Program-made: the position numbers and the translations under genes
The notes under the pieces: generated by a model
Databases searched by the model: none
The model's input: only the letters and a program-made list of their open reading frames with translations
Told to the model about the DNA's origin: nothing
Shown here: positions 2,073 to 64,000 of the stretch, piece by piece
How positions within the stretch are numbered: position 1 is the stretch's first letter
Layout of the letters: the number at the start of each line of letters is the position of its first letter
NCBI GenBank assembly: GCA_000091205.1
Contig: AP006491.2
DNA: 64,000 nt
Strand: one strand, 5' to 3'
From: Cyanidioschyzon merolae
Lineage: Eukaryota

Positions 2073-2910
2073 GCCAGTGCTGCGTCGCACAGCCGGTGCA
2101 GTCAAATTTTCAGCTATTCCCCGCACAATCAGGAAACGGCGTCCTTCAGGCCCTGTGACGCAGAAGGTTTCTGGTAAAAGCTTGCGGTATACCTGGCTAC
2201 GCCACTGAGACTCCGAACCCCAGAAACCTGCACCCGTGAAGATCCCGCTCCAGGTACAAGTATTCCAAGCAGTTGCGTCCCGAGAGACCGTGCAATCTTC
2301 TTTGGTTGCTAGCGACAGCAGCTATCGCCGTCCACAAGCTCTCAAGACCCGCTCACCGTTCGCCTGCGTTGCCTGGGGAATCCGCTCGACTCGCCACGTG
2401 CCCGTACAAGGCGATCGATCTGAAACGGTCGCGTAGAACACCGGTGCCTGGAGCACTGGGAGCGCCTAGAAGGGGTGCAACCGAGGTTCCTAGACCGTGC
2501 TTGCCACAGGACATTAGCGAATACTGGAGCGGCAGCAGCGTTCGTGACAGGCGTATTCAAGGTTCCTAGTTCGTAGTTTCGGCGCTACACCAGCAGAAAC
2601 TGGAGCAGAACATATTCTCTTAGCAAGCGACACGGGAGGTTTCCGAGGTTGCGAGGTGGTGGTGGTGCTGCTGCTGCTGCTGCTGACGCTACAGCAGCGG
2701 ATTTTGGAGCAGTAAACGGGACAGGCAGCGATCGAAATAAGTAGCGGCATTGTATGGGGGATCGTTGCAACCTCTCATCTAATTGCTGGCCGCTTACTCA
2801 TTCGAGGAAAGCTATTCTGAAGCACCGCTCCACCACTGTACAAGAGTCACCGGCCTGCAGTCTATATTATTGGACTGCGGGTTCACGGATAAGTATCACA
2901 GACTCTTAGC

Positions 2911-5030: not shown

Positions 5031-5559
5031 CGCAACACGAGTGCGTTGCCCGTTGTACCCGCGCTCCCTGGTGCGACAAGTCGCCGAGGAAGCGCGCGCG
5101 CCATTCTACGCTCAGCGCCGATTGCGTTCCTGATCGCAGAGGGCGCTTCGAGCCGACCTCTGTATCCAGGTATCGCAGTATTGCACTGCTTTGATGTCGC
5201 GATGGCGGACTGCTGCACATGCTAAGGTGTAAGGAGCGTCCACAGCAGGCCTGGTACTCGGAAAATCGCTGGATCAAGACTGCGCCCCTCGGGCGGAGCA
5301 CGAACATGAAACTACTGAGACCTGATTGCATCGCGCACGTGCTGGGGCCTCTTCGTCGGTCACTGACAGCACACGGGCAGCAGGGGGTGGGATTTGACTG
5401 GAGAATTCGACGCTGCAGCATCAAAAACTTTTCAAACTCGTATTTGCGCCAGATCATGTCTTGCGTAGAGCTGAGGCTCTTATCTGTGTATCTGGAAGCG
5501 CTCGCGTATCCCCCAGGTTTATCACAGATCTCGAGTTTGCACGACACTTTTGTGAGTCT

Positions 5560-7440
5560 ACAATGGAGCGCTGACCAGCTCGCTCTGGTCCTTCATCTCG
5601 ATATTTCTCCGAACTCGTTTTAGATGTGTCGCAGCGGGATTCAATGTGCAGCAGGAAAAGAGAATGCGTCGATGCGCGGTTTTAGGATTCCCGGTCGGTT
5701 CCTCGGGGTATGATCCCTCGACGCTTTGCCGCTGGGATTTGTGATCGCCATTCGAATCAAGACCATCCAAGACCGCGCTGAACAGCGGTCCGTAAAACAA
5801 CCGATGCCATCATCCAACTCATGTGTACAAGCCTCTGCTCTTCTCCTTTTCTGACGCGTAGCAGGCTCAAATCACCCATTCTACAAATTATCGATCTTTC
5901 TACATGAGCGCAGCAACACTCACAAGAAGAAAAGCTCAACATCGACCCGTGACGACTTGCTCTCAAGCACACTCCGAAACTTCAACGAAGTCGTCAGGTC
6001 AAACTAGAACCCACTCCGTTCGTACGATCCACCCCTCCCTCTTTGTGGCTATCGACGCGTCGACACTCGACAGCAGCAGCACGGAATCGCTCACGGGATG
6101 CGCTTCCGGGCGCTCCCGTCTCTTCAGTTTGTAAGGAAGGGGGCCCTTGGACTCGGAATTCAGTCCTCGCATCGATCGCCTCCGATGGAGGGTGCGTCAC
6201 CATTTCGCACAAAGAGACCGTTCGCTTGTCAAAGTGTCTCGGCTTGCTCTCCCGCCTGGATCTTCCGTTCAGTGCTTGTTCCATCACGGACCAGATCGCA
6301 ATCAGCATATCCGCTTCTGTTCGGAACACAGCAGAGAGTTTAAACAGGTCGTCGTATACACCCAACTTGTTTCGTATGCTGCAACTCGATTGAGAATGTC
6401 TCCGCAGCAGTGAGGAACGGGTTCAGGGAAGCAAATGCTCGTTTCGATCTCTCGACTTGTCCTCGACACGCACTGGTGCCCGACGCTCTTGGTGCCGAGA
6501 CTGCGGCCACCGGCTCGGCGGCGGTCCACAGAAATCTCCAGCTCAGGTGCCGGAAAGTTTCCAACCGCCCTCATAAACCAAGGCCACCTACATAGCGCCG
6601 TCGAGCGCTTCATGAGGCGCGTCCTGCGAGCTTCATGCCTGTTGTTCCCTCCGTTCACCGGCCCCAAACAGTAGGGACTGGTGTGTAAGAGGCCTGCGGA
6701 CGTCGATGGAGGCCAGCGCCGACCTGGCAGCCGCGGAGGACATCGAACTGGTAGCGAGTGTGGAAGAGGTGCCGCAACGAGTACGAGAGGCGCCTCGGAT
6801 CGTCGGAGCTCGTGGCGTTGGTCTCGACCTCGCAGCGACGGACGACGTATCTAAAAGATGGTCGGAACGTGGTGTCTGTCCTTGTTGCGCCTTGTGCGAT
6901 CTATCTACTAGAGCATACACCGAGAGCAGGCATGGATGCCCCGAGATGCCCATCGATGAGCCGAGCACGTTGTCCGCGCATCAGGGCCACGGATGCACGC
7001 TGAAACCGAGAGAGAAGAAGAGCGTGAACCAGAGCCGCATGCACGAGATGGTGAACGGTACGTTCATCGAATGTCAGATGAGGAGGCAATCGAAAGCGAG
7101 GTGCTATCTACGGAGTGCTTTTGAAAGCAGTCACGCGCGCAAGCACTTTCTGCGGCGACCCTTGAACGCCTTGATCGACATCCGGAACGGTCTCGTGCTT
7201 CGGGGGCGCGTAGCGGGTCTGTTTCGAGTGAAGCTTCCATGGAAACGTTTAGCACTTTTTTGGACATTGTGCTGAATGTCTGAGGCGTTTCGATTGAGAA
7301 AATCAGTGTCCAGGAGTGAGGACATTGGACTCTCGACGGAAGCAGGGCACTGGTATCATCCAGGCAGCATTCTCGAATGGCTGGTGCGGCGTCTATATTT
7401 AGATACAACGAGAACTGTATTCCTTTGTACATGATATTTA
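5560..7440 (+). repeat. Family-A interspersed repeat, copy A1 (about 1.9 kb, near full length, forward orientation)
   Basis: About 97-99% identical to 18800-20700, and in inverted orientation to 27330-29180. The short ORFs on both strands are shared between copies, for example 'MFYGPLFSAVLDGLDSNGDHK...', 'MDSEFSPRIDRLRW...' and 'MEASADLAAAEDIELVAS...'. The left terminus begins 'aatggagcgctgaccagctcgctctggtcc'. Confidence 0.85.
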
Positions 7441-14645: not shown

Positions 14646-15740
14646 CTACAGTTTGGGTCTCTTCCCATTGCTATCATCAATACCAGTTTTTCGGGCTATT
14701 TCCGCGACTGATTGCTTCTCCTCTCGAAATCTAAGGTTTTCAGTATGCTTTTCTGCCCTGTCCCTTCGGCTCCGTCGTCGGCAGTCGAACGATATGGATG
14801 GATGCGTGAAAGCACCGATTGGGCGCTTCGCAGCTGTTGTCAGTGAAGTCGTGGTCAGATTGTAGTTGCGATCTATGCTCAACATGCGATTTCCATCATC
14901 TTACCACATAGCATCGGTGCGCGTCTCGCAGATGTGGTCCTTCACTGCGCTCAGGCGCTCGCATATGTCCAGGACACCTCCCGCTCGGTACGCTTCTCTG
15001 TTGAGCGTGAACGTTTTCATCAGCGCACTGTACATGTCCGTGACCGGTACAGAAGGCTCTGCTGGATGCGCTCATATATTCCCGCGCCAGGTGTCTCGCC
15101 GCACGATCACAGTCTCCTTCAGGGCTATCTCGTCCGCGAGGACTATGTGTTGTGCAGGCGCAAGCGCACACTGTTCCATTCGATGGCGGCTTTCTGGAAC
15201 GCGGTGATGTCGGCCTTGATATGAGAACCAGAATGAAAATCCAGTGTCGAGTAAAGGCTGAGAAATTCGGACAAGTGAACGGCCTCTTTGTGCGAAATGG
15301 TGACACACCCTCCATCGGAGGCGATCGATGCGAGGACTGAATTCCGAGTCCAAGGACCCCCTTCCTTACAAACTGAAGAGACGGGAGCGCCCTCTTGAAT
15401 ATTCTATAACAGGTATCCTGCTGTGGTCGCATGCTGTTTCTTCGAAAGCCGTAAAGAGAGGATAATTTTTCTTGCGAACGGGATTGATTATTACGTAGCC
15501 GAATAAGTTCAATGAGTATTCGGCATGCGCTTCTATACTATCTGTCACGGGACGAGGTCGGGGTTTATCTCCGTCACTCCAGCGTTGCGAGTTGCTGAAC
15601 ACACGAGTTGCCCTCGTATAGAAAGAACGAAGACTCGGAGAAAGTGTGATTTAAAAATTCTGCACGGAAGCAAAGGGGAAGAGTGGAGGCCTCTTCAAGT
15701 TAGATTGGATAATGATTTTTGTTTATCACAAACTCTTATC
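14646..15740 (-). repeat. Family-A related mosaic repeat, copy A6 (M1 module plus a shared 130-nt block)
   Basis: 14660-15392 is nearly identical to 35580-36300. Its last about 130 nt, 15270-15392, are the reverse complement of the 6110-6240 block of copy A1. An 80-nt motif at 15640-15730 recurs at 36560-36640. Confidence 0.8.
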
Positions 15741-16596: not shown

Positions 16597-16800
16597 CTCG
16601 TCCATAGCGTGCTGCAGTGTTGCACCCAGAGACGCTTCCGCGACAACACCTCTTATCGTGAAACGGTATTCACACGTGCTGCAGTGTTGCACCCAGAGCT
16701 GCTTCCGCAAAAACACCTCGTATCGTGAAACGGCACTCACACGTGCTGCACTGTTGCACCCAGAGACGTTTCCGCAAAAGTACTGTCCGCTATCCGTCAG
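16597..16800. repeat. Tandem repeat, about 3 units of about 66-70 bp ('acgtgctgcagtgttgcacccagagacgcttccgc...cgtgaaacgg...')
   Basis: Three consecutive near-identical units are visible directly in 16590-16800, immediately upstream of the Sof1 start at 16947. Confidence 0.8.
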
Positions 16801-16946
16801 AGCGCAGGCGGCCGCACGAACGGCACGCCACCGAGTACAATGCAGGTCTCAACTGCAGCGAGTTTGGCCTGAGGAGTCAACGCAAGCGTTGAGTCTTCGT
16901 TTCACAACCTCGACGGGGCCCTCGTTTCCGAAAGTCCTCCACTGCT

Positions 16947-18275
16947 ATGCGTGTTTACTGTCTGACACGTTCCGAGCGTGAACTCAAAGAGACGGCGGTG
17001 GCTCGCACGATCCGGAACTTGGATCCTCAACTGCATCCCTTTGAGCGCGCAAGGGAGTACAAGCGAGCACTCAACTCAGCGAAGATTGAGCGTGCACTGG
17101 CGAGGCCGTTGGTTGCCGCTTACGAAGGCCATGCCGACGGTATTTATGCTATGAGTGTGCACCCCATCCGAATGGCCGAGGTCGCAACTGCGAGCGGCGA
17201 CGGTGAGGTACGTATATGGCGCTTATCGCAACGCAGCGCAGGTTCGGGAGAGAGTCTCGTGCAGAGCCGCCTCGGACACGCTGCCCCTGTATGTGGTCTT
17301 ACAGCAACGTGTGACGGACGTTTCCTGCTCTCAGCGAGCCAGGGAGACGCGGTGCAGTCCGTTGTCCAGCTGTGGCGCTGGCCTGTTGCAGACGGAGCGA
17401 GTACCTGGACTCCGCTATGTTCCTATAGACGCCTCCGGGGGGGTTTCGGCGACGTCAGCGCCTCGCCCAGTCAAGGCGCAGTTTTTACGACAGGTTCTGA
17501 GGACGGTTTGATTGAAGTTTGGGACTTCCATCGCTCAGAGCCTCTGACACGGTTTGTAAGTCATGCGGAACTCCCTGTCGCTGTGCGACGACTGCATTAC
17601 CATCCCTCAGAGCCGGCTTTGTTGGGTGCATGCCTTGCGAGTCGCGAGCTAGCAGTCTATGATACTCGTGAGAAAACCATGCTGACGCGCTACCGGCTGC
17701 CGATGCAGTGCAACGATTTATCTTGGAATCCGATGCGGCCTTTCCAGCTTGCCGTAGCCTGCGACAATCACGATGCGTACCTCTTCGATATTCGACGCAT
17801 GGATCGGCCGCAGCAGCTATATCATGGACACGTTGGTCCAGTGCTCAGCATCTGCTTCGCGCCAACTGGGCATGAATTGTGCACCGGCAGCTATGATAAT
17901 ACAGTGCGAATCTTTGACTGTAGAGAGAGCAAATCCCGCGATGTATACTTTACCAAACGAATGCAGCATGTGTTCCGAGTGCGATATACCAGCGACGCGC
18001 GCTTCATTCTCAGTGCTAGTGACGATGGCGATCTCCGAGTTTGGAAGACGAACGCCGCCGAACCGTTGCGGCAACTGCTGGTGCGCGAGAAACGGAGCTT
18101 GCAGTATGCGCAGAAACTGCGCGAACGCCACCGGTACCTGCCTCCAGTCCGTCGCATTTTGCACAGCCGATTCCTCCCTCGATACCTCCATAACGCAACG
18201 TTGCAGAAAAGAGAAGAGTTGAAAAGTCGTCAACGAAAAGAAACTCGGCGTCGATTGCACACTCGCCGCCGATAG
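16947..18275 (+). CDS. SOF1: U3 snoRNP / SSU processome WD40 protein Sof1 (DCAF13)
   Basis: The N-terminus 'RNLDPQLHPFERAREYKRALNSAKIERALARP...GHADGIYAMSVHP' matches the conserved Sof1 N-terminus 'RNLNPELHPFERAREYTKALNATKLERMFAKPF...GHRDGVY'. WD repeats throughout and a basic C-terminal Sof1 tail. 442 aa as a single exon. Confidence 0.9.
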   Translation: MRVYCLTRSERELKETAVARTIRNLDPQLHPFERAREYKRALNSAKIERALARPLVAAYEGHADGIYAMSVHPIRMAEVATASGDGEVRIWRLSQRSAGSGESLVQSRLGHAAPVCGLTATCDGRFLLSASQGDAVQSVVQLWRWPVADGASTWTPLCSYRRLRGGFGDVSASPSQGAVFTTGSEDGLIEVWDFHRSEPLTRFVSHAELPVAVRRLHYHPSEPALLGACLASRELAVYDTREKTMLTRYRLPMQCNDLSWNPMRPFQLAVACDNHDAYLFDIRRMDRPQQLYHGHVGPVLSICFAPTGHELCTGSYDNTVRIFDCRESKSRDVYFTKRMQHVFRVRYTSDARFILSASDDGDLRVWKTNAAEPLRQLLVREKRSLQYAQKLRERHRYLPPVRRILHSRFLPRYLHNATLQKREELKSRQRKETRRRLHTRRR

Positions 18276-18799
18276 CCCGGGTTTTTCTGGATCGTGCCTC
18301 GATAAGAGTACTCATACTATGCAGCTCGCGCTATCCGTGGAGGGCGCGGTAGCGATCTCTGGCTCGAGGCATCGACATAGCAGTCGATTCGTCACAGTTT
18401 CCCTACGAACGCTAACGATCGAAAGCGAAACCCACCCGACCCTGGGGATAGCGAGTGTTCCAGGAGGTCTACGGAAAGTCTTGATGGTCATCCGGCACAC
18501 TGTGTGCGAAAATGACGCGACTCTAATAGGATCTGTAGTTCAAAAGTGTGCTGCAAGGTCACGGATGAGCATGGATTTGTGCACAAGGGCAGCGCACACG
18601 TGCATCGGGTGTCAACCACGTATGCACAGTGGAGGTGGATGGCTGCTATTTTCGATGATTTAGGGTCGATGCACGGAGCCAGATCATTCTGGGTACGTTG
18701 ACGCTGTCGTTATCGGAAGCGTAAACCTCGACTGCCCGGTAGGTCCCTTCCCGTACCTCCATTCCCTGCTCAGTGTTGATCGACGCTCGCGTCAGGTTA

Positions 18800-20700
18800 A
18801 AATGGAGCGCTGACCAGCTCGCTCTGGTCCTTCATCTCGATATTTCTCCGAACTTTTTTTAGATGTGTCGCAGCGGGATTCAATGTGCAGCAGGAAAAGA
18901 GAATGCGTCGATGCGCGGTTTTAGGATTCCCGGTCGGTTCTTCGGGGTATGATCCCTCGACGCTTTGCCGCTGGGATTTGTGATCGCCATTCGAATCAAG
19001 ACCATCCAAGACCGCGCTGAACAGCGGTCCGTAAAACAACCGATGCCATCATCCAACTCATGTGTACAAGCCTCTGCTCTTCTCCTTTTCTGACGCGTAG
19101 CAGGCTCAAATCACCCATTCTACAAATTATCGATCTTTCTACATGAGCGCAGCTCGTGTGCGCTGCACCTCGCGCAGCAACACTCACAAGAAGAAAAGCT
19201 CGACATCGACCCGTGACGACTTGCTCTCAAGCACACTCCGAAACTTCAACGAAGTCCTCAGGTCAAATTGGAACCCACTCCGTTCGTACGACCCACCCTT
19301 CCCTCTTTGTGGCTAGCGACGCGTCGACACTCGACAGCAGCAGCACGACATCGCTCACGGGATGCGCTTCCGGGCGCTCCCGTCTCTTCAGTTTGTAAGG
19401 AAGGGGGCCCTTGGACTCGGAATTCAGTCCTCGCATCGATCGCCTCCGATGGAGGGTGCGTCACCATTTCGCACAAAGAGACCGTTCGCTTGTCAAAGTG
19501 TCTCGGCTTGCTCTCCCGCCTGGATCTTCCGTTCAGTGCTTGTTCCATCACGGACCAGATCGCAATCAGCATATCCGCTTCTGTTCGGAACACAGCAGAG
19601 AGTTTAAACAGGTCGTCGTATACACCCAACTTGTTTCGTATGCTGCAACTCGATTGAGAATGTCTCCGCAGCAGTGAGGAACGGGTTCAGGGAAGCAAAT
19701 GCTCGTTTCGATCTCTCGACTTGTCCTCGACACGCACTGGTGCCCGACGCTCTTGGTGCCGAGACTGCGGCCACCGGGCTCGGCGGCGGTCCACAGAAAT
19801 CTCCAGCTCAGGTGCCGGAAAGTTTCCAACCGCCCTCATAAACCAAGGCCACCTACATAGCGCCGTCGAGCGCTTCATGAGGCGCGTCCTGCGAGCTTCA
19901 TGCCTGTTGTTCCCTCCGTTCACCGGCCCCAAACAATAGGGACTGGTGTGTAGGAGGCCTGCGGACGTCGATGGAGGCCAGCGCCGACCTGGCAGCCGCG
20001 GAGGACATCGAACTGGTAGCGAGTGTGGAAGAGGTGCCGCAACGAGTACGAGAGGCGCCTCGGATCGTCGGAGCTCGTGGCGTTGGTCTCGACCTCGCAG
20101 CGACGGACGACGTATCTAAAAGATGGTCGGAACGTGGTGTCTGTCCTTGTTGCGCCTTGTGCGATCTATCTACTAGAGCATACACCGAGAGCAGGCATGG
20201 ATGCCCCGAGATGCCCATCGATGAGCCGAGCACGTTGTCCACGCACCAGGGGCACGGATGCACGCTGAAACCGAGAGAGAAGAAGAGCGTGAACCAGAGC
20301 CGCATGCACGAGATGGTGAACGGTACGTTCATCGAATGTCAGATGAGGAGGCAATCGAAAGCGAGGTGCTTTCTACGGAGTGCTTCTGAAAGCAGTCACG
20401 GGCGCAAGCACTTTCTGCGGCGACCCTTGAACGCCTCGATCGACATCCGGAACTGTCTCGTGCTTCGGGGGCGCGTAGCGGGTCTGTTTCGAGTGAAGCT
20501 TCCGTGGAAACGGTTAGCACTTGTTTGAACATTGTGCTGAATGTCTGAGGCGTTTCGATTGAGAAAATCAGTGTCCAGGAGTGAGGACATTGGACTCTCG
20601 ACGGAAGCAAGGCACTGGTATCATCCAGGCAGCATTCTCGAATGGCTGGTGCGGCGTCTATATTTAGATACAACGAGAACGTTTCCCCTGTGCAATTGGT
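18800..20700 (+). repeat. Family-A interspersed repeat, copy A2 (forward)
   Basis: Collinear with copy A1 and about 97-99% identical to it. The same embedded ORF set is present. The right end shares 'gaacgtttcccctgtgcaattgg' with the other copies. Confidence 0.85.
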
Positions 20701-23748: not shown

Positions 23749-24523
23749 AAAATAAACCTTAGGTATGCCGCTCGAAACGCAAAGGCGCTGCGGAACAGCA
23801 CATATTGAACGGGAACGATGGCAGCGTTCGCAAGTTCTGTCGCGATATGTATCTAACTACATAGTTCTGATCTGAAATGGCTGCTTTGAAAGACGGCCAA
23901 TCGCGAAACGCCTCAGCTGAGACATCGACCGAATGCTACCGTACAAGTCTGTTTTCTTAGTGATCGCTCCGAAGGGCAGCACTTCCCGAAACAACTCTGC
24001 AGAGACATCGAGCCGAGATCTGCAGATGTTCTCGCAACAAGGTTTTGCCTTGAGGTCATGCACGCAAGGTCGCCGGTTTCAGCGCTCGGCAGTGCACGAG
24101 AGGCTTTGCTCCAGCAATAGAATAGATCAGTCCGAACCCAATGTTTTGGCAAGGATGTGAGCCATGCAACAACGCGCGCGTATCCGGAAAGAGTCTAGCG
24201 GGGGAAGGGGGTTCATAATCGTTCCCCCATTCGACCGAGCGCTCTATACTCGTCCATGGGGAAGGCTCAACTATGCTACACGTCTTGCTATACAGCAGGG
24301 CGCTCGGATAAGCCGTTAGATTCCTCGAAGCTGCATTTAAAAGTTAAGCTTGCTGATTGCGGCGCTTGGGCTCGACATGCGTCGCCTTTGCACGCTCCGG
24401 GCCACCTCAATGAAACAGTTATACTAGACTGGGTGCCTATTTGCGAGGCGTTTGACGCATGGCTCGCGAGATGAACCTACCTGACCACAAATTTATCATC
24501 TATTCAGTACAACGAAAAACGTT

Positions 24524-25110
24524 TCACGACCATGGAGGATAAGCTAACACCCACTCGGTGACGCATCCCAGCTTTTTTTGACCGGCCGCCTGCGATCGAT
24601 TTCCGTTTCTCTTTGTATACTTCGAGCTTGAAAGGCTGCCCACGAAGTTACATCGCGTATGCTTCTTGTGTCTCGTTGTAAGTTTAACACATCGTCTGAT
24701 ATTGATAGCAGCGTTAAAGTCTCCATTCACGAGATCCATGAGTTTACTGCCGCTGGTTGAACTCACCAATGAGAGGATTCCTTCAACTCGTGCCCTCTGT
24801 GCCACTTCTATCTCGTCATCGCTCCTTTGGACAAACAACTTTGCTCGCCTATCTCCGCTCTTCTTCTTCTCCTTCATCATTTGCTCTTCTTCGTTCCATG
24901 GCAGGCAAGAAGAGGATTTTTGCATCGTTTGCCTGCAGCCGGCGTTAACGGCGCTCCAGGATCCTCGGCTTCGGTATCCATAATTTTTCCTTGAATTTTT
25001 TATTTTTGAAAACAACCGCACTTCGAATGCATCTGCTATGAACCGCAAAAAGGCATTTGATGACACGTCCCTTGGGATGGAACCCAACTGGGGTGCAAGA
25101 CCGCACACAC
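24524..25110 (-). repeat. Family-B repeat, truncated diverged copy B0 (3' part of the element ORF only)
   Basis: The minus-strand ORF carries '...DDEIEVAQRARVEGILSLVSS...DFNAAINIRRCVKL...'. The core 'gtctcgttgtaagtttaacacatcgtctgatattgatagcagcgttaaagtctcc...actcgtgccctctgtgccac' is homologous to the cores at 30480-30640, 44090-44230 and 63660-63800. Confidence 0.7.
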
Positions 25111-30294: not shown

Positions 30295-31850
30295 CTAATA
30301 TTTCTTGCGCAAGGTTGTGCAGGAACAAGACGTAAAAGATTGATCAACGATTCGCTGCCATGGAGCGTAAATATACGCCCACATGCAGACGCCTCCCAGC
30401 CTTTTCGACCGGCCCGCTGGTATCGGTTTCAGCTTCTCCCTGTATACTTCGACCCCGGGAGTTTGCCCCACGAAGTTAGATCGCGTCAGCTGCTTGGGTC
30501 TCGTTTTCAGCACAACATATCGTGTAATATTGGCAGCAGCGTTGAAGTTTCCGGCCACGAACTGCATGCGTTTTTTTGTCGCTTGTTGAACGCATCATTC
30601 CAAGGATTCCTAGCACTCGTGCCCTCTGTGCCACTAAAGTCTCGTTCTCGCGTCGTTGGCCAAACACCATTTCTCACCAGTTGCCCCTCTTCTTCTTCAC
30701 TCTCTCTTCTTTGCTCCATGGTTAGCGATAAGAGGATTTTTCAGTTTTTTCCCGGCACCTTACGATGGCGGCCATCCAGGATCCCCGACTTTCGTATCCA
30801 TGACTTTCCCTTAGATTTTTTATGTTTGGAAATGAACGCACTTTTTCACCCTTAGATGAGGACCTTCCCCGGGAGAGAAGGACCTGTTGTAGGACGACGA
30901 AATATGCCCGGGAGTGTCACCGTGTGCTGAACGCTTCAGCGAGCCACCCAATGGAGCCGTCATTACGTTTCAGGATAGAAACACGCTTTAGATAAGGTTG
31001 AAATGCGTAGAGCACGGAGGAAGGAAAAGCAGCTCTATCATGGTAAAATCCGCAAAAGGTCGCACGCAGGGGGGACTGGTGAAGTGCCATGTTGTCCAGT
31101 AGAAGGACTTTGCTAGGCTTCAGGGGAACGTCTTCAATGGTTGGAAAAACTGGGTTCCATTTTATGAGCCTTTTTGATGAGCGACACTGAGGCCGCCAAA
31201 TATATCCGCTGCAGCAAATACGGATGATGTCCTCATTCTCTTCGAGTCCTATCGTACATTCAACGGGCGCCCTGCTCAGCAAATACCCAAGTGCGCTCCG
31301 GCCGTTTCGTCCAGCGGAAATCTCATCGACTCAAAACAAATCCGGCTTGCCTGTGCTTTTTGTGGATAGCGAAGTTCCAGAAATTCCGTAGTTCCGATTT
31401 CGGTGGAAGGTGACCGTGCGTGAAACGGGACTCTTTTTTCGCGACTGTAACCCAGTGTATTCAGGATCAAACGAAAAAGCAGTTGAGAAACAGAGATCCA
31501 CGTAGGGACTACCATTGTCGATTTTGCTCTCTATATGATGATAAACGGGTGGTTTTCCATCATTGATCGCAAGGATTCTTTGACGGTACCAGTTTTCTGA
31601 TGCGGAGCGCCGGTACTTGTGTTCCTTTAATCTTCCTCAAACATCTGCGTACTGTGGCATGACTGACCCGAATAAGGAATGCAGTCCTCCTTGCACTGTG
31701 CAGTTAAAAACACATATCCTACTAGCAACCCGTCTACGATCTATACGGTACATTGCGAAGTGATTTCGATCTTTTACTTTAGACCGAGGCGGGGAGTTGG
31801 AATAGAATTGAGTTGAAAGTCTACAGCAAGTTAATGCGCGGCGATCATAC
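30295..31850 (-). repeat. Family-B repeat, full-length diverged copy B1 (about 1.55 kb)
   Basis: Homologous along its whole length to 43925-45465, at roughly 65-75% identity. The minus-strand ORF fragments carry 'VAQRARVLGILGMM', 'NFNAAANITRYVVLKTRPKQLTRSNF' and '...ATFCGFYHDRAAFPSSVLYAFQPYLKRV', matching B2 'AAFHSSVLYLIQPHQKNV'. Confidence 0.75.
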
Positions 31851-35556: not shown

Positions 35557-36730
35557 TTAAAGATTGGCGTCCTGCCCACAGTTATTAATACCAGTTTTTC
35601 GGGCTATTTCCGCGACTGATTGCTTCTCCTCTCGAAATCTAAGGTTTTCAGTATGCTTTTCTGCCCTGTCCCTTCGGCTCCGTCGTCGGCAGTCGAACGA
35701 TATGGATGGATGCGTGAAAGCACCGATTGGGCGCTTCGCAGCTGTTGTCAGTGAAGTCGTGGTCAGATTGTAGTTGCGATCTATGCTCAACATGCGATTT
35801 CCATCATCTTACCACATAGCATCGGTGCGCGTCTCGCAGATGTGGTCCTTCACTGCGCTCAGGCGCTCGCATATGTCCAGGACACCTCCCGCTCGGTACG
35901 CTTCTCTGTTGAGCGTGAACGTTTTCATCAGCGCACTGTACATGTCCGTGACCGGTACAGAAGGCTCTGCTGGATGCGCTCATATATTCCCGCGCCAGGT
36001 GTCTCGCCGCACGATCACAGTCTCCTTCAGGGCTATCTCGTCCGCGAGGACTATGTGTTGTGCAGGCGCAAGCGCACACTGTTCCATTCGATGGCGGCTT
36101 TCTGGAACGCGGTGATGTCGGCCTTGATATGAGAACCAGAATGAAAATCCAGTGTCGAGTAAAGGCTGAGAAATTCGGACAAGTGAACGGCCTCTTTGTG
36201 CGAAATGGTGACACACCCTCCATCGGAGGCGATCGATGCGAGGACTGAATTCCGAGTCCAAGGACCCCCTTCCTTACAAACTGAAGAGACGGGAGCGCCC
36301 GGAAGCGCGTCCCGTGAGCCATTCCGTGCTGCTGCTGTCGAGTGTCGACGCGTCGATAGCCACCAAGAGGGAGGGGTGGATCGTACGAACGGAGTGGGTT
36401 CTAGTTTGACCTGACGACTTCGTTGAAGTTTCGGAGTGTGCTTGAGAGCAAGTCGTCACGGGTCGATGTCGAGCTTTTCTTCTTGTGAGTGTTGCTGCGC
36501 GAGGTGCAGCGCACACGAGCTGCGCTCATGTAGAAAGATCGATAATTTGTAGAATGGGCGATTTGAGCATTCTCCACGGAAGGAAAGGGGAAAGTGGAGG
36601 CTTCCTGACATAGATTGGGTAATTATTTTTGTTCACCACAGACCCTATTTCAACACAGCCTTGGATCAGTTTGATTCCGATGGCGATCACGATCTCCAGC
36701 GGAAAAGCATCGAGGGATCATACCCGAAGA
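35557..36730 (-). repeat. Family-A related mosaic repeat, copy A4 (M1 module plus the left part of A, inverted)
   Basis: 35580-36300 is nearly identical to 14660-15392. 36300-36730 is the reverse complement of the A1 left part (about 5560-6110) and ends with a diverged A left terminus. Its terminus points toward the RPLP1 gene. Confidence 0.8.
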
Positions 36731-42868: not shown

Positions 42869-43924
42869 AGCATCGGTCAACGGAGGCTTTTCGAAGAAGG
42901 GGCGCAGCAAACGACGGTGACAGCCTGGTAGGAATGCTACGCCGTGTATCCCCAGCTTCCATGTACCCACTCGTCAATCCAAGGCAGGGACCTGCATTTA
43001 GATGCCTGAAGGCTGTCTAATAGCCCGTTCTCAGCTGACGGCAGCAGGATCAGTCCCCCTCGAGGCACAGGAGTCGCTGCCATGGCGATCGGAAACGCCT
43101 GGATGCTCCATTTTTGATACCCTCGTCGGTTTGGGCAGCATTCCCCATGAAAGAGCACTCAATGGTGGTCATACCGTGAGGTCTCCGGTTACTGGAAACG
43201 TCCTATCGATCAAGAAAATTCAATATTGATCATGAAAAGGTGCGCAAAAAACGCATTTCACGCGTGTGCCTCAAAAGCTCTGAAAACGCGGATCGAGTTC
43301 TCGATATAAAACCGTCAACAACATCTGGGTGTTATCCATACGCCGGGTATATCTGGGTTTATAAACCTGCGCTACGATGGTAGGCAGCGTCGTCGAATGA
43401 CTTAGCAACTCCATGCATCCCATTTTCCGGACCTGGCGATGTATGCACAGACTTGGTCATCCGATGACTCACTAGCCAAGTCAGTGCGACACCGTCACTT
43501 CCAAAGAATGCTTCCAGCGCATTCATAAGATGTCCTACAAGATGTTTAGAGATTACTCGTCTCTTTCCGCTTCAGTTGCTTCTTGCTAATGATATCGAAT
43601 TGACACATGAGTTCGCCGGAAAGTATTTGTATGTGCAGTCCCGTGCTGTCTTCCATGCAATCGTATCTGGTGATTGCAGCTGAAGTGGCCTCTGTCCGAG
43701 CCAAAAGACACCGGGCGACTTCACTTTGCACGCAGTCGTGTTAGCGTTCGGAACCTGTTTACCAACAGGCGGGGGAACCCACGTGCGACGCCGTCCGCAT
43801 TCATGAAAACGCTGCCTTGGAATTCTTCCTCTACTAAGAATTTTCCAAGAAACACCTCTTTCCATTCCAGCTTTCAATTTCCAAAGCATTGCGCCCTGGT
43901 TACAATTGTGTTTGTGCTCGCGGG

Positions 43925-45465
43925 GCGAAAAAGATTCGCAATTGTGTGCGGTAAAAGAATATCCACTCGCAGAAGCTTATTATCCTTTTTTGACCCGCCG
44001 CCTGCAATCGGTTCCAGTTGATTCACGCACACTTCGAGTCTCAGCAGTTGCCGCATAGCGTTGGATCGTGTCAGCTGCTCGGGTCTCGTCTTCAGCACAA
44101 CGCATCGTCTGATATTGGTAGCAGCGTTCAAGTCTCGGCTTACGAGCTCCATGCGTTTACTGCCGATCCCTGATCTCATCACACCGAGGGTTCTTAGTAC
44201 TCGTGCCCTCTGTTCCGCTACAGTCTCGTCATCGTTCCACTCGACAAACACCGTCCCTCGCCTATCTCCTTCTTCTCCTTCTTCGCCACTTGCTCTTCTT
44301 CGCTCGATGGTCGGCGAGAGGAGGCATTTTTCGTTCTGGCTGCGACGAATCCAGCAATGACGGAACTCAGGATCCCCGACTTCCACATCCATACCATTCC
44401 CTTGGATTCTCTGTTTCTTCAAAATCATAGCGATTGTTCATTCGTTTAGGTGAGGACCTTCCCGCAAAAGCTAGGACTCGCGAAAGTAAGACACCATGCG
44501 CCCGTGTGTCAACGTGTGCCGGAAGCTTCAGCGATGACCCCACTGGAGCGACATCATACGTTTCACAATGGAAAACATTCTTTTGATGAGGTTGAATCAA
44601 GTAGAGCACAGAGGAATGAAAAGCAGCACTATACCTCGACAGGATCGGCAAAAGCCCGAACGCAAGGGGAATGGTGAAATGCCACGGTGTCCAGCAGAAG
44701 GACGTCGCCCGACGTCGGGGCGAAATCTTCCATGATTCGATCAAGTGGCTGGTGTTGGTCGATGAGCCTTCTCCACTAGTGAATCTGAGGCCGCAAATAA
44801 AGTCCACTCCGTCTGAAGCAGATGATGACATCCTCGCTCTCTTCGAGCTCGATCGTACATCCAGCGGGTGCACTGTCCGCGAATACCCATTTACGCTCCG
44901 GCCGCCTCGTCCGAAGCAAGTTTCATCGACTGAACAAGCAAACCGACGTCCGTGTCCCGGTCCCTGTGCTCCATACGGATAGTGGCGTTCCACGAACGCT
45001 GAAGTAGCTGTGACCTCGGTGGGAAATGGCCGTGCACGAACTGAGACTTTCTTTTTGCGACTGTACCCCGTGTATTCAGGACCACTCGAACACGCTTTTA
45101 AGGAACAGGGACGCGCGTAGCGACTACTATTTTCGCATTTGTCTTTCGTAAAAGGTGTCAACGGGCCGTTTTCTACCGTTGATCGCGCGCATTCTCTGAG
45201 AATATCGATGTTTGACGCAGAGTGCATCTACTTCTTTCGGTCAGTGTTCGTCAACCATCTGAGTACTGTTGTACGACCGACCTGGAGGAGGAACGCAGTC
45301 CTCCATGCACTGTTCTGTAAAGAATATGTATGGTACAGGCGATTCGCCTACGATCTATCGGGTACATGGCATCGTGATTTCGATATCCTGCTATGCACCG
45401 CTGTGTATATGGGGGAGCGGAGTAGGCGAAGTGGAATTGAGTTGAAAGACTTAAAGCGCGCGTAA
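43925..45465 (-). repeat. Family-B repeat, full-length copy B2 (about 1.5 kb); decayed ORF of about 470 codons split by one frameshift
   Basis: About 99% identical to 57850-59400. Minus-strand ORFs of 286 aa (44367..45227) and 184 aa (43874..44428) overlap out of frame. The C-terminal part reads '...VFVEWNDDETVAEQRARVLRTLGVM...SRDLNAATNIRRCVVLKTRPEQLTRSNA...LEPIAGGGSKK'. Confidence 0.8.
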
Positions 45466-45495
45466 CCTCCGCTCGTTCCGATAAATTGTTGAATC

Positions 45496-46155
45496 TTGTG
45501 GTTGGAGGTCTTCCCGATGGACTCAGGCTTGCTTTCTCTAGCAGATAGGACGCTGTTGCAGACCCTTTTCACGAGAGGTTTTCTACAGAGCGAGGAGGCC
45601 CTGACGTATTATCGGAACTTTCTCGAGGTAACGCAAGGCGAGGAGGTGCAGCCCGCGACACCCAACCTCGCGCAGTTCGAGGCACTTGAACCTGATGTGC
45701 TGGTTTCTCGTCTCAACGGACGTCTCAACGGTGCGGACTTTTCTGTACGTTTGGTCTCAGACGATAAAAGTAAGGCATACCTAACCCTTTGCAACACGAG
45801 AGAGGATGCGTCCTGTAGAGAAGCCTGCCTGTACAGTGCACACGCGAGAGCAGTGTTTGAAGGTATTTTAAAAAAAGGTTTCTTGAACCCGCTTTCCCCT
45901 AGTCACCAGGAAGGCAGCATAACATTCTCGGAATGTGTCAGAATAGCAGAACAGTTACCTGAACACGTGCGCATATCAGGGTTTGAGGCGGAACTCCTTC
46001 AGATTCTCGTGGAGGATGGATGGCTGGAGCGGCTACCGGGTGCTCCAGCGAGCAGAAGTAACAACAAGACGGAGGATTCTTTCCGACCTGGCGTGCGAAC
46101 CTATGCAGAGCTGAGAGAAATGGAGCAATGGAGACTCCGAAGGCTTCAAGGATGA
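45496..46155 (+). CDS. Hypothetical protein, possibly Nse1-like (SMC5/6 complex) N-terminal winged-helix region without a RING domain. Tentative.
   Basis: 'DRTLLQTLFTRGFLQSEEALTYYRNFLEV' resembles human NSMCE1 'HRRFLQLLMTHGVLEEWDVKRLQTHCYKV'. 'AELLQILVEDGWLERLPG...YAELREMEQW' resembles 'QVLQKFVQNKWLIEKEGE...AILEMEQY'. The ORF stops at 46155 and no Cys-rich RING follows. Confidence 0.35.
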   Translation: MWLEVFPMDSGLLSLADRTLLQTLFTRGFLQSEEALTYYRNFLEVTQGEEVQPATPNLAQFEALEPDVLVSRLNGRLNGADFSVRLVSDDKSKAYLTLCNTREDASCREACLYSAHARAVFEGILKKGFLNPLSPSHQEGSITFSECVRIAEQLPEHVRISGFEAELLQILVEDGWLERLPGAPASRSNNKTEDSFRPGVRTYAELREMEQWRLRRLQG

Positions 46156-57849: not shown

Positions 57850-59400
57850 TATTCAGTAAAACAAAAAACGTTCTATGACCATTGAGGGTCAATACATATA
57901 CCCACATGCGGACGCCTCCCAGCCTTTTTTGACCCGCCGCCTGCAATCGGTTCCAGTTGATTCACGCACACTTCGAGCCTCAGCAGTTGCCACATAGCGT
58001 TGGATCGTGTCAGCTGCTCGGGTCTCGTCTTCAGCACAACGCATCGTCTGATATTGGTAGCAGCGTTCAAGTCTCGGCTTACGAGCTCCATGCGTTTACT
58101 GCCGATCCCTGATCTCATCACACCGAGGGTTCTTAGTACTCGTGCCCTCTGTTCCGCTACAGTCTCGTCATCGTTCCACTCGACAAACACCGTCCCTCGC
58201 CTATCTCCTTCTTCTCCTTCTTCGCCACTTGCTCTTCTTCGCTCGATGGTCGGCGAGAGGAGGCATTTTTCGTTCTGGCTGCGTCGAATCCAGCAATGAC
58301 GGAACTCAGGATCCCCGACTTCCACATCCATACCATTCCCTTGGATTCTCTGTTTCTTCAAAATCATAGCGATTGTTCATTCGTTTAGGTGAGGACCTTC
58401 CCGCAAAAGCTAGGACTCGCGAAAGTAAGACACCATGCGCCCGTGTGTCAACGTGTGCCGGAAGCTTCAGCGATGACCCCACTGGAGCGACATCATACGT
58501 TTCACAATGGAAAACATTCTTTTGATGAGGTTGAATCAAGTAGAGCACAGAGGAATGAAAAGCAGCACTATACCTCGACAGGATCGGCAAAAGCCCGAAC
58601 GCAAGGGGAATGGTGAAATGCCACGGTGTCCAGCAGAAGGACGTCGCCCGACGTCGGGGCGAAATCTTCCATGATTCGATCAAGTGGCTGCTGTTGGTCG
58701 ATGAGCCTTCTCCACTAGTGAATCTGAGGCCGCAAATAAAGTCCACTCCGTCTGGAGCAGATGATGACATCCTCGCTCTCTTCGAGCTCGATCGTACATC
58801 CAGCGGGTGCACTGTCCGCGAATACCCATTTACGCTCCGGCCGCCTCGTCCGAAGCAAGTTTCATCGACTGAACAAGCAAACCGACGTCCGTGTCCCGGT
58901 CCCTGTGCTCCATACGGATAGTGGCGTTCCACGAACGCTGAAGTAGCTGTGACCTCGGTGGGAAATGGCCGTGCACGAACTGAGACTTTCTTTTTGCGAC
59001 TGTACCCCGTGTATTCAGGACCACTCGAACACGCTTTTAAGGAACAGGGACGCGCGTAGCGACTACTATTTTCGCATTTGTCTTTCGTAAAAGGTGGTCA
59101 GCGGGCCGTTTTCTACCGTTGATCGCGCGCATTCTCTGAGAATATCGATGTTTGACGCAGAGTGCATCTACTTCTTTCGGTCAGTGTTCGTCAACCATCT
59201 GAGTACTGTTGTACGACCGACCTGGAGGAGGAACGCAGTCCTCCATGCACTGTTCAGGAAAGAATATGTATCGCACAGGCGATTCGCCTACGATCTATCG
59301 GGTACATGGCATCGTGATTTCTAGCTGCTATGATTGCCCGCAGCGGGCGTGCAAAACATTGATTTGAAAGACTAAAAAATCGAAATCGCCGGTCTGGTTT
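57850..59400 (-). repeat. Family-B repeat, full-length copy B3 (near-identical to B2)
   Basis: About 99% identical to 43925-45465. The minus-strand ORFs 57873..58367 and 58306..58932 correspond to those of B2, with additional disabling changes. Confidence 0.8.
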
Positions 59401-63504: not shown

Positions 63505-64000
63505 TGCTCAGTAAAACAAAATATGGTGTACGACCATACAGTAACTGCGTATACCCACTCGCAGAAGCCAGACAGCAAAACTACCGGCCTCTTGTTATCG
63601 TTTCAGTTAATCCAGGCAAACTTCGAGCCTGAGACATCTCCACGAATTTGGATCGCGCCAGCTCCTCGGGTCTCGTCTGCAGAATCGCTTATCGTCCGAT
63701 ACTGATGGCGGCGTTGAAGTCTCGGTTCAAAAGCTTCTTGCACGTATTGACGCTGTTGAACTCACCAATGCAAAGATTCCTCGAACTCGTGCCCTCCGTG
63801 CCACCATAGTCTCGTCATCGTCCTGTCGGGCAAACACCATTTCTCGCATACCTCCCCATTGTTGTTCTCCTTCGTCATACGCTCTTCTTCGATCGATGAT
63901 ACACAATGAGGGGATTTTTCGTTTTGGTTTTGTCGAACCCGGCGATGACGGCTTTTCGAGATCCTCGACGTCCATGTCCGTACCCTTCCCTTGGATCTTT
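63505..64000 (-). repeat. Family-B repeat, diverged copy B4 (3' part; runs off the right edge of the window)
   Basis: The minus-strand ORF reads '...MVFARQDDDETMVARRARVRGIFALVSS...'. It has the conserved core 'ctcgggtctcgtctgcagaatcgcttatcgtccgatactgatggcggcgttgaagtctcgg...actcgtgccctccgtgccacc' and the shared terminus 'cagtaaaacaaaata...cgtatacccactcgcagaagcc'. Confidence 0.7.

Follow-up and report, generated by a model that had tools for sequence, protein, structure and literature searches.

Family-B repeats of Cyanidioschyzon merolae as probable dead copies of a composite transposon with a DDE_3 transposase pseudogene and an internally deleted Fanzor1

The closest described relative of the repeats analysed here is CMe-1A, a Fanzor1 transposon of Cyanidioschyzon merolae with about 150 copies, which was published in 2013 and left unclassified (Bao & Jurka, Mob DNA 4:12, PMC3627910). 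The same work described Fanzor1 genes inside Mariner elements, with the transposase preceding Fanzor and with TA target-site duplications, the examples being PUl-1 and PGv-1. Fanzor1 structures have been solved for SpuFz1 (8gkh), Parasitella Fz1 (9cf0) and Guillardia GtFz1 (9cer) (PMC10432273; PMC11423790). In our profile search all three were homologous to the intact relatives of the fragment found in the repeats, and they have in common with them the 'DPG' RuvC-I, 'DEFRTS' and 'NRD.NAA.N' RuvC-III blocks. The original prediction for this locus, made from the letters of the DNA alone, had raised the possibility of a Fanzor/OMEGA-like nuclease family; since CMe-1A of C. merolae has been in print since 2013, such a family would not be new. 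The Fanzor of the repeats, which we call family B, is already known; what is new, in a modest way, is that both termini of the long repeat are also those of CMe-1A.

Family B was analysed in a stretch of 64,000 nucleotides of C. merolae DNA (the window). Five copies in the same orientation had been predicted and blastn bore this out, with all matches plus/plus and far beyond chance, and with boundaries agreeing within about 30 nt. Using 43800-45600 as the query against the window, the matches were 57923-59332 (98.9% over 1413 nt), 30402-31770 (70%, E=1e-153), 24551-25012 (71%) and 63583-63996 (71%), and both repeat finding and nhmmer agreed with blastn on these copies. The peptides cited in the prediction are present on the minus strand of the family-B copies, which are as follows.

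43915..45451, minus strand: B3, the copy named in the original prediction, long form; boundaries from alignment with other lineages
57852..59373, minus strand: B4, long form; 98.9% identical to B3 across 57923-59332
30331..31821, minus strand: B2, long form, about 70% identical to B3; from blastn, nhmmer and CMe-1A matches
24503..25103, minus strand: B1, short form of about 600 bp, without the DDE_3 part
63507..64000, minus strand: B5, cut by the window end; from blastn, nhmmer and a CMe-1A match

B5, cut by the window end, may be of either the long or the short form. B3 is made up of a 5' terminus, a DDE_3 transposase pseudogene, an internally deleted Fanzor1 of the CMe-1A type and a 3' terminus, and its parts were placed as follows.

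45400..45451, minus strand: 5' terminal region 'AGTCTTTCAACTCAATTCC...', homologous to the CMe-1A 5' terminus (consensus 787-862)
44480..45367, minus strand: DDE_3 transposase pseudogene; from tblastn, Pfam and homologue search
44218..44410, minus strand: Fanzor1 5' part, a short upstream region and about 54 first codons to 'DDETV'; aligned with intact Fanzor 5' ends (L048, L094), and B1 and B2 match CMe-1A 801-969
44199..44230, minus strand: internal-deletion junction, 'GACGAGACTGTAG' joined to 'CGGAACAGAGGGCACGAGT'; from 5'-end alignment and CMe-1A blastn coordinates
43985..44217, minus strand: last approximately 100 Fanzor1 codons, with RuvC-III and the C-terminal tail; from the A2 profile, tblastn and blastn
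44105..44140, minus strand: RuvC-III motif 'SRDLNAATNIRR', read from the sequence; aligns with profile 'nRDlNAAlnir'
43915..43984, minus strand: 3' terminal region, diverged from B4 and beyond the 98.9% tract; from alignments A1, A3 and that of seven lineages

Following these analyses, we consider that family B is very probably what remains of a composite DNA transposon of the cut-and-paste type in C. merolae 10D, its copies now being dead and decaying neutrally. The analyses showed what the copies are composed of and what they are homologous to, where the deletion junction lies, that the frames are broken, that divergence follows a neutral pattern and that the termini are common to the copies and CMe-1A. 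The long form (B2, B3 and B4) reads on the minus strand from a 5' terminus of about 50-75 nt into a DDE_3 transposase pseudogene of about 295 codons, and then through a CMe-1A-family Fanzor1 with an internal deletion of about 1.84 kb to the 3' terminus, and the short form (B1) is the same deleted Fanzor unit minus the transposase gene.

The 3' part of approximately 490 nt in each copy is an internally deleted CMe-1A Fanzor1 transposon, of which the 5' UTR with about 54 codons from the N-terminus and the 3' terminus with about 100 codons from the C-terminus survive. The published CMe-1A consensus matched the window copies by blastn in two blocks, 801-969 and 2811-3088, at 69-75% nucleotide identity, and the approximately 1.84 kb lost from the Fanzor part (CMe-1A about 970-2810) took with it RuvC-I, RuvC-II and the region of the zinc finger. 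In B1 the order is Fanzor-element 5' terminus, 5' UTR, N-terminal codons, deletion, C-terminal codons and 3' terminus (801-959 at 25090-24928 and 2811-3081 at 24825-24560), and nhmmer matched it with model c3 at 24999-24508 and had no match to model c5; the corresponding positions in B3 are 45438-44412 for c5 and 44410-43926 for c3. The two halves of model c3 are separated by 1.75 kb in L048, a lineage with an intact Fanzor unit. The B3 Fanzor1 begins with an ATG at 44392-44390 and the peptide 'MDVEVGDP', equivalent to CMe-1 'MEKEVEDPG', and its junction joins N-terminal '..DETV' to C-terminal '(E)QRARV', which is 'ERRAKV' in intact Fanzor1. A HMMER alignment had offered the B3 stretch 'EFRHCW...' as the 'DEFRTS' zinc-finger block; this was rejected on the 5'-end alignment and the CMe-1A coordinates, the same stretch being the Fanzor N-terminus ('MDVEVGDPG...').

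The proposal of a C-terminal RuvC-III motif was correct, and the motif is genuine Fanzor1. A profile of intact relatives (A2) matched the open reading frames of B3 (3e-13), B4 (3e-13), B1 (2e-12) and B2 (4e-8) as well as the solved Fanzor1 structures 9cf0 (E=5e-17), 8gkh (1.4e-15) and 9cer (0.002), and the CMe-1A DNA aligns there too. For B3 the profile match was E=2.9e-13 at hmm 533-622 of 632, the tblastn match was to residues 441-529 of homologue P0005, and CMe-1A 2882-3068 aligned by blastn with 44172-43985. The motif, 'NRDFNAAINIRR' in intact relatives and of the form 'RD-x-NAA-x-N', reads 'SRDLNAATNI' in B3 and B4, 'NGDFNAAINI' in B1 and 'NRDFNAAISI' in B5, and in B2 it reads 'AGNFNAAANI' (GNFNAAANITR), where the catalytic Asp has become Asn. 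A copy with Asn for Asp had been predicted and does exist, but it had been placed in B1; the Asn copy is the one at 30295-31850, and the copy at 24524 has 'GDFNAA'.

Upstream of this motif very little of the nuclease remains. The A2 matches in window reading frames are confined to profile positions 533-628 of 632, and tblastn with intact proteins found only their last 85-115 residues or so in family B. None of the five window copies has the RuvC-I 'DPG' block ('VVGADPGNTNI' in relatives), with no match before profile position 533 or residue 668 of protein P0001, and its site lies inside the mapped deletion. Likewise, the window copies hold no counterpart of CMe-1A about 970-2810, where the RuvC-II acidic residue and the central domain from RuvC-I to the zinc finger would lie, and no [TS][TS]-x-x-C4 zinc finger (OrfB_Zn_ribbon / TNB) was found before RuvC-III in them. 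The lack of a CxxC zinc finger had been noted in the original prediction, and that region is within the 1.84-kb deletion. The CMe-1 'DEFRTS..' block lies at about residues 600-630 and the retained part begins near residue 634; the finger of intact CMe-1 is already degenerate ('TSYTHHELGC...EKC'), and in two distant relatives, P0085 and P0086, CxxC is present together with weak PF07282 matches. Fanzor sequence occurs in the window only in stop-to-stop frames of 164-194 aa, none of them an intact nuclease reading frame, versus 580-750 aa for intact proteins. Lacking RuvC-I, RuvC-II and the zinc-finger region, and with a transposase frame that is broken, the window copies can make neither enzyme and are inert.

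Intact relatives came from further searches. Scanning metagenome contigs for a single 18-mer yielded about 60 copies, a way of sampling that biases the set of lineages. 'IDEFRTS...NRDFNAA' occurs in relatives that are less decayed, and one lineage (L073) has a near-intact reading frame of 598 aa with 86 homologues, including the intact proteins of 580-750 aa; the PF26935 match on homologues, DUF8286, had a weak score and was uninformative. Direct Pfam and PDB sequence searches with the window reading frames gave no match, and the reconstructed 451-aa frame of the original prediction found nothing in a database of 5.8 billion proteins even at E<=10. This last query proved to be two pseudogenes run together and read in part in the wrong frame. 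An exact-product look-up of a 184-aa reading frame found nothing on record.

The upstream part of about 1 kb in the long copies is a decayed DDE_3 transposase gene of the Tc1/mariner/IS630 type. We built a transposase consensus from seven lineages, 62-68% identical, which matched Pfam DDE_3 (PF13358) at E=1.7e-17 and 64 bits (cutoff 28.6), and tblastn with it located the gene in B3 at 45068-44558 (E=5e-47) and in B2 at 31464-30947 (E=9e-38). The frame-corrected reading of B3 itself reached only 16.4 bits (E=0.0085), because that copy is decayed. The B3 gene has its ancestral ATG at 45367-45365, frameshifts and stops, and the motifs 'VDET' (first D), 'LLLD(N/T)VAFHHS' (second D) and a decayed 'PPxSxxNPIE'; counted in the consensus, there are 35 positions from the second D to the E of 'NPIE', in line with a DD34E-type triad. 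The consensus has 171 homologous transposases of about 295 aa, the best at E=1e-68 with 51% identity over 95% of the query, and the matches span 95-100% of the consensus, many with PF01498 (HTH_Tnp_Tc3_2) together with PF13358. Accordingly, the single Fanzor reading frame of about 470 codons that had been proposed is absent: its upstream two thirds are the DDE_3 pseudogene, partly in the wrong frame, and the proposed conserved protein motif 'AAFxSSVLY' is an out-of-frame reading of transposase 'LLFIPPCSxxNPIE'.

In a local alignment, positions 26-78 of the long-form consensus align with CMe-1A 787-862, and the 5' ends of solo copies, long forms and intact Fanzors were aligned together. The family-B 3' terminus is '..TTYGTTTYACTGAR', B4 ending in '..TTTTACTGAA' followed by 'TA', and a second Fanzor lineage (L048) has the same end, '..TTCGTTTCACTGA'; the extreme 3' part of about 45 nt is unlike that of the intact CMe-1A lineage. 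A search for terminal inverted repeats (TIRs), by repeat search and blastn of the consensus ends, gave none longer than about 4 nt, only a 'CAGT'-like tetranucleotide being common, and its describers likewise found neither TIRs nor target-site duplications for CMe-1A (PMC3627910). 'TA' stands before the 5' end in most lineages, including B3 (45452-45453), and after '..ACTGAR' in several, not in all; divergence between the copies is about 35%.

Because the long form has both termini of CMe-1A, these results suggest that the unclassified CMe-1A may descend from a two-gene mariner–Fanzor1 transposon. The ancestor would have been a PUl-1-like Tc1/mariner-type element with the transposase followed by Fanzor1, moved by the DDE enzyme by cut-and-paste into TA sites and carrying Fanzor1 as an RNA-guided passenger nuclease. 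The Fanzor-only CMe-1A and the Fanzor-deleted family B would then be reciprocal deletion derivatives of one ancestor. Among the copies retrieved, none combined an intact transposase with a full Fanzor1, so this two-gene element is a reconstruction and not an observed one. The near-identity of B3 and B4 is probably due to ectopic gene conversion of the internal 1.41-kb tract and not to recent movement.

Perhaps, instead, the long form is an accidental chimera that arose a single time, when illegitimate recombination or a nested insertion brought a deleted CMe-1A copy together with a Tc1/mariner-like element unrelated to it, and that was afterwards amplified, in which case CMe-1A would have no ancestral link to a DDE transposase. 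The missing two-gene element is in keeping with such a fusion, as are three intact Fanzor units (L093, L094 and L048) with no adjoining DDE_3 gene. However, the DDE gene lies inside a CMe-1A-type 5' terminus, with about 50-75 nt of CMe-1A 787-862 preceding its ATG, and the CMe-1A upstream region restarts directly after it. Moreover, the DDE segment has no termini or TIRs of its own around it, the junctions are identical in seven lineages, and the order of transposase and then Fanzor1 has precedent in Mariner-Fanzor elements. We consider a single fusion to be unlikely.

The window copies resemble CMe-1A in coming from the same genome, in having the same N-terminal 'MEKEVEDPG' and C-terminal 'KKRMEFVNRDFNAAINIRRCAVLEKRP' motifs, and in belonging to an old family, CMe-1A copies being about 80% identical to their consensus or less. 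They differ in lacking consensus positions of about 970-2810, most of the reading frame, as well as the TE-N2_CMe-like 5' 635 bp, and three of them add the DDE_3 pseudogene, which is not in the published 3169-bp consensus. With PUl-1 (Pythium ultimum) and PGv-1 (Phaeocystis globosa virus) they share a transposase first and Fanzor1 second on the same strand, a DDE_3/Tc1-mariner transposase with 'DN..H...PPYSP.LNP(I/V)E', and TA flanks at many family-B ends. Whereas PUl-1 has 24-bp TIRs, TA duplications and both genes intact, family B has no recoverable TIRs, neither gene is alive and the Fanzor is internally deleted. B1 is like internally deleted, non-autonomous DNA transposons of the MITE kind: it occurs in many copies and retains both ends of its parent, about 200 nt at the 5' side and about 300 nt at the 3' side of one clean junction; unlike these it has no recognisable TIRs, and its parent carries Fanzor, with an uncertain mobilising enzyme.

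All copies carry stops and frameshifts, and the family decays neutrally, its divergence being without codon-position bias and even along the element. Variable sites at codon positions 1/2/3 numbered 85/79/76 in the window copies, and pairwise differences by codon position were 0.33/0.35/0.33 and 0.34/0.33/0.36 in seven diverged lineages. What had been taken for protein-level conservation is thus conservation of nucleotides only. Identity is uniform at 55-72% across the whole element, and with more copies sampled the 3' block thought to be specially conserved does not stand out; the one peak, at 82%, reflects ascertainment, because it is the 18-mer used to retrieve the copies. That the 18-nt block is invariant was also considered as evidence for functional constraint; we rejected this, since the block is the retrieval pattern and spans the deletion junction.

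The prediction had also placed an omegaRNA scaffold at the 3' end, and in the window copies we could find no support for one. Rfam and tRNA scans of the window gave no match, RNAalifold found 0 consensus pairs in an alignment of 21 sequences, and 15 family-B-type 3' ends had a structure conservation index (SCI) of 0 and no common structure. A weak hint of 3' structure was found only in intact CMe-1A relatives elsewhere, six 3' ends having a consensus energy of -17.6 versus -8.7±2.0 for column shuffles (z=-4.6), a modest signal. One 11-bp helix was paired in 8/8 sequences, a biased count since the alignment used for scoring the structure was also its source, and the structure overlaps the conserved coding motif. 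Compared with the solved Fanzor1 proteins and their omegaRNAs, the window copies retain the RuvC-III block and tail only, and the CMe-1 omegaRNA is putative.

More than 20 independent lineages have the identical 5'+3' deletion derivative, and intact CMe-1 proteins occur in the same organism. It might be proposed from this, and from the structure signal and helix of the intact relatives, that the right end is retained because it still works in trans, giving intact CMe-1 Fanzor1 proteins encoded elsewhere in the genome an omegaRNA or recognition module; the window copies would then be guide-RNA 'satellites' of a eukaryotic OMEGA system, much as non-autonomous elements live off an autonomous one. 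We regard this as highly improbable, given that the family-B-type 3' ends show no common structure and are conserved no more than the dead DDE part, that in the intact CMe-1A lineage the extreme 3' sequence is a different one, that the helix has the weaknesses noted above, and that amplification from one deleted master copy explains the common junction equally well.

The reading of each 1.5-kb copy as a decayed Fanzor/TnpB-like frame of about 470 codons, read across one frameshift, with a 3' omegaRNA scaffold is scarcely credible, even though its RuvC-III and tail are truly Fanzor1, its size happens to fall within the TnpB range and the omegaRNA of characterised Fanzor1 loci does sit there, at the right terminus or 3' end (PMC10432273): the upstream 1 kb matches DDE_3 and intact transposases, nothing in it matches positions 1-530 of the Fanzor profile, the junction left by the deletion has been mapped, RuvC-I and RuvC-II, looked for upstream, are deleted, intact members are longer than 470 aa, and the 3' ends gave neither consensus pairs nor a non-zero SCI.

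With CMe-1A in the literature, Fanzor a characterised RNA-guided nuclease and the window copies inert relics, family B has little value as a discovery. The long form is a first hint at classifying CMe-1A, through termini in common with a DDE_3-encoding element and a Mariner–Fanzor1 gene order. Since C. merolae, an alga with a genome of 16 Mb that lends itself to genetics, keeps intact CMe-1 Fanzor1 genes, it could be a convenient native host for testing the role of Fanzor1 for its transposon. For annotation, these copies are a warning that a clean RuvC-III motif may outlive the rest of the nuclease in a fragment.

A scan of viral contigs with the 18-mer gave one match, which we took as chance. 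In the window itself, the ILVD and trigger-factor reading frames were exact matches to BAM80026.1 and BAM80031.1 of C. merolae 10D, respectively.

Family B is a decayed composite, in which a mariner-type transposase gene is joined to an internally deleted and previously described Fanzor1 element. The original prediction had read it as one decayed nuclease gene; its C-terminal motif is indeed the RuvC-III motif of Fanzor1, and its open reading frame proved to be a transposase pseudogene fused to the deleted Fanzor1 gene. A blastn search of the window with 43800-45600 gave four further copies in identical orientation, and the copies were recovered also by a repeat search and by two alignment-built nhmmer models. 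The five predicted copies are real, with coordinates near the boundaries that we set by comparing the window copies with many more copies, and the peptides quoted for them were found on the minus strand.

Family B copies in the window, minus strand (boundaries; blastn match to 43800-45600; tblastn match of the transposase consensus; match to the consensus of CMe-1A, the published C. merolae Fanzor1 transposon; E-value of A2, a profile from intact Fanzor relatives)
B1, short form, 24503-25103; blastn 24551-25012, 71%; 25090-24928 = CMe-1A 801-959 and 24825-24560 = CMe-1A 2811-3081; A2 2.1e-12
B2, long form, 30331-31821; blastn 30402-31770, 70%, E=1e-153; transposase 31464-30947; 30844-30737 = CMe-1A 868-969 and 30626-30381 = CMe-1A 2840-3088; A2 3.8e-8
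B3, long form, 43915-45451; transposase 45068-44558; 44172-43985 = CMe-1A 2882-3068; A2 2.9e-13
B4, long form, 57852-59373; blastn 57923-59332, 98.9% over 1413 nt; transposase 59007-58497; 58111-57904 = CMe-1A 2882-3088; A2 3.4e-13
B5, 63507 to window end; blastn 63583-63996, 71%; 63803-63669 = CMe-1A 2833-2971; A2 0.006

The window is gene-dense and intron-poor with plastid-type genes, and two of its ORFs are identical to C. merolae 10D proteins (dihydroxy-acid dehydratase BAM80026.1 and trigger factor BAM80031.1) that are present also in hot-spring metagenomes, from which the extra copies of family B were drawn. Window ORFs and the previously reconstructed 451-aa ORF had no match in Pfam, PDB sequences or a 5.8-billion-protein database. 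Used to scan metagenome contigs, the invariant 18-mer GGMACRGAGGGCACGAGT gave 88 loci, about 60 of which contain the repeat, and among these loci were much less decayed relatives reading '...RFVTFPIDEFRTSCIDHELGC...GGKKRMEFVNRDFNAAVNVRRCAVLEKRP'. Locus L073 has a 598-codon frame with two stops only and the motifs 'FVIGADPGNTNI' (RuvC-I), 'LVVAYGAGRW', 'IDEFRTS' and 'NRDFNAAINIRR'. Alone, this frame had no match in Pfam or PDB; it recruits 86 homologues, among them intact proteins (580-750 aa) of the same communities as well as distant ones carrying CxxC fingers. The A2 profile (15 sequences) matches the Fz1 structures of Parasitella (9cf0, E=5.2e-17), Spizellomyces (8gkh, E=1.4e-15) and Guillardia (9cer, E=0.002). 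Since it also matches the family B frames, always inside positions 533-628 of 632, the predicted motif is a true Fanzor1 RuvC-III.

These relics belong to a Fanzor1 family known from the literature. For C. merolae, Bao & Jurka (2013, PMC3627910) list a single such family, CMe-1A, with a 3169-bp consensus and about 150 copies, each about 80% identical to it and some still intact; TIRs and TSDs were not found and the classification was left unknown. The consensus, taken from the supplement of that paper, is 82-89% identical to the metagenome Fanzor loci and aligns to the window copies as two separate blocks. The 5' 200 nt of our family B 3'-block model match the start of intact Fanzor elements (upstream region and start codon), with 'MDVEVGDP' in B3 corresponding to 'MEKEVEDPG' in CMe-1, the encoded protein, and the 3' 290 nt match their end; in the intact lineage L048 a distance of 1.75 kb separates the two halves. 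The deletion junction, between GACGAGACTGTAG and TGGCACAGAGGGCACGAG, joins N-terminal '...DETV' (CMe-1 residue ~54) to C-terminal '(E)RRAKV...' (residue ~640). The missing 1.84 kb contains RuvC-I, RuvC-II and the 'DEFRTS...C' block, leaving neither RuvC-I nor RuvC-II upstream of the motif, and by tblastn only the last 85-115 residues of intact proteins are represented. The predicted motif '(D/N)(D/E)E(T/I)xVA(Q/R)RARV' is this junction and no zinc-finger remnant.

The rest of the long form belongs to a different known family, contrary to a single decayed Fanzor ORF. In a consensus of seven lineages (mutual identity 62-68%), the 5' 1 kb encodes, once two frameshifts are bridged, a Tc1/mariner/IS630-type transposase with an HTH region, 'FVFSVDETSF', 'VLLLDNVAFHHS' and 'LLFIPPCSTxFNPIE', and it matches Pfam DDE_3 with 64 bits (cutoff 28.6, E=1.7e-17; frame-corrected B3 reading, E=0.0085). 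A 277-aa reconstruction found 171 homologous transposases of ~295 aa (best E=1e-68, 51% identity over 95% of the query), many with HTH_Tnp_Tc3_2; none of the 171 was an intact DDE_3 homologue from C. merolae-type samples. The second predicted motif, 'AAF(P/H)SSVLY(A/L)(F/I)QP', is a +1-frame reading of 'LLFIPPCSTxFNP', and the 286-aa ORF at 44367-45227 coincides with the transposase frame over part of its length only.

The long form starts with ~50-75 nt aligning to CMe-1A 787-862 ('TAGTYTTTCA..TCAATT.TGTTTCA.CCC...GCGGTNTATAGCAGNAG'), continues into the transposase gene, and then resumes the CMe-1A upstream region at '..AAGTGCGTTC..AAAAAATC.AAGG..ATGGA'. The termini and deletion junction of the long form recur, without the transposase, in short forms (B1 as well as many metagenome loci), and L048, a second intact Fanzor lineage, shares the family B terminus '..TTCGTTTCACTGA'. 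Separate termini around the transposase segment were looked for and none were found. From this arrangement we infer that the simplest history would be an ancestral two-gene element, DDE transposase followed by Fanzor1, whose reciprocal internal deletions would have given the Fanzor-only CMe-1A and the Fanzor-deleted family B. The same layout is documented in Mariner–Fanzor1 elements such as PUl-1, which carries both genes (PMC3627910). Among the window and metagenome copies none has both genes complete, the intact Fanzor units are without a DDE_3 neighbour, and the 'TA' flanks and 'CAGT'-like ends are no more than suggestive. What is new here is a hint tying the unclassified CMe-1A to a Tc1/mariner transposase.

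The family B copies are pseudogenes in neutral decay since an old copying burst, and present activity of the composite is not plausible. Every copy has stops or frameshifts. Variable sites among window copies are spread evenly over codon positions 1/2/3 (85/79/76), so the protein-level conservation originally perceived is leftover nucleotide identity. Pairwise differences among the seven long-form lineages are likewise without bias (0.33/0.35/0.33 and 0.35/0.27/0.36 in DDE segments 1 and 2, 0.34/0.33/0.36 in the Fanzor C-terminus). Identity along the element is uniform (55-72%), and its sole peak (82%) is the 18-mer used for retrieval. B3 (43984-45395) and B4 (57923-59332) are 98.9% identical over an internal 1.41-kb tract only, the outermost ~50 nt (5') and ~70 nt (3') having diverged like unrelated lineages. 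This confinement is better explained by ectopic gene conversion, with two old copies 13.9 kb from each other as partners, than by recent transposition.

Where Fanzor1 systems have been characterised, the omegaRNA comes from the stretch between the ORF end and the 3' inverted repeat, with the guide beyond (PMC10432273), and the predicted 3' location is therefore reasonable in principle. A scaffold in the window copies is unsupported: an Rfam search of the window gave nothing, 21 aligned non-redundant 3' blocks had no consensus pair, and 15 family-B-type 3' ends had a structure conservation index of 0. A role for the retained right ends as guide modules used in trans is improbable. In six intact ends of the CMe-1A lineage, the final ~135 nt folded better than column shuffles (-17.6 versus -8.7±2.0 kcal/mol, index 0.45). 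In an 8-sequence RNAalifold model, scored on its own source alignment of close relatives, double changes occur at 9 pairs; one helix of 11 bp is paired in 8/8 sequences and overlaps the conserved RuvC-III codons, which pair with 'GCGGTGCTGGAG'. These ends, with a modest conserved-structure signal and with hairpins that surround or immediately follow the stop codon, are a candidate omegaRNA region of the intact family.

Intact CMe-1A-lineage 3' ends with structure signal (metagenome loci)
L094, 10035-10463
L093, 9279-9704
L018, 6792-7220
L073, 1806-2234, minus strand
L091, 3231-3659, minus strand

The first 640 nt of the CMe-1A consensus (TE-N2_CMe part) are solitary in L090 (6354-6995), joined to the Fanzor unit in L093 (6342 onward), and missing from L094, L048 and every window copy, so the published consensus is itself a composite. 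Directly upstream of the RuvC-I 'GADPG' block, intact CMe-1 genes (L094 9146-9449, L093 8465-8694) repeat an acidic unit of ~25 codons ('..KHEEKKEADPATQEVQDND..') in tandem, and because this array varies, the proteins range from 580 to 750 aa. In L091 (2184-3827, minus strand) and L038 (1-1551, plus strand) a SAM-dependent methyltransferase-like host gene is immediately preceded by a C-terminal fragment of CMe-1A, and the two share an open frame of 548 codons stop-to-stop, probably by chance read-through rather than as a fusion protein.

A second repeat family in the window, family A (~1.85 kb, 97% identity between copies), has its own Fanzor1-like C-terminal remnant, distinct from that of family B, '...IDEPSTLSTHQGHGC...FLRRPLNASIDIRNCLVL'.

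Family A in the window
5559-7415, plus strand, copy
18798-20680, plus strand, copy
29176-27436, minus strand, copy
38930-38028, minus strand, copy
36725-36165, fragment
15392-15257, fragment

The Fanzor1 profile matches family A with E=5e-14 to 5e-10, and the remnant is closest to a distant homologous protein, P0066 (35% identity over residues 524-667). Family A has no nucleotide similarity to CMe-1A or family B and, because one C. merolae Fanzor family only is listed in PMC3627910, may be a second, undescribed lineage of Fanzor relics. A 67-nt unit in three tandem copies (16608-16808; 90% and 61% identical to the first) lies directly upstream of a WD40/Sof1-like ORF (16947-18275). A 300-nt repeat with 100% identity (14676-14975 and 35584-35883), 20.9 kb apart in a repeat-rich region, may belong to a larger tract of recent duplication or conversion.
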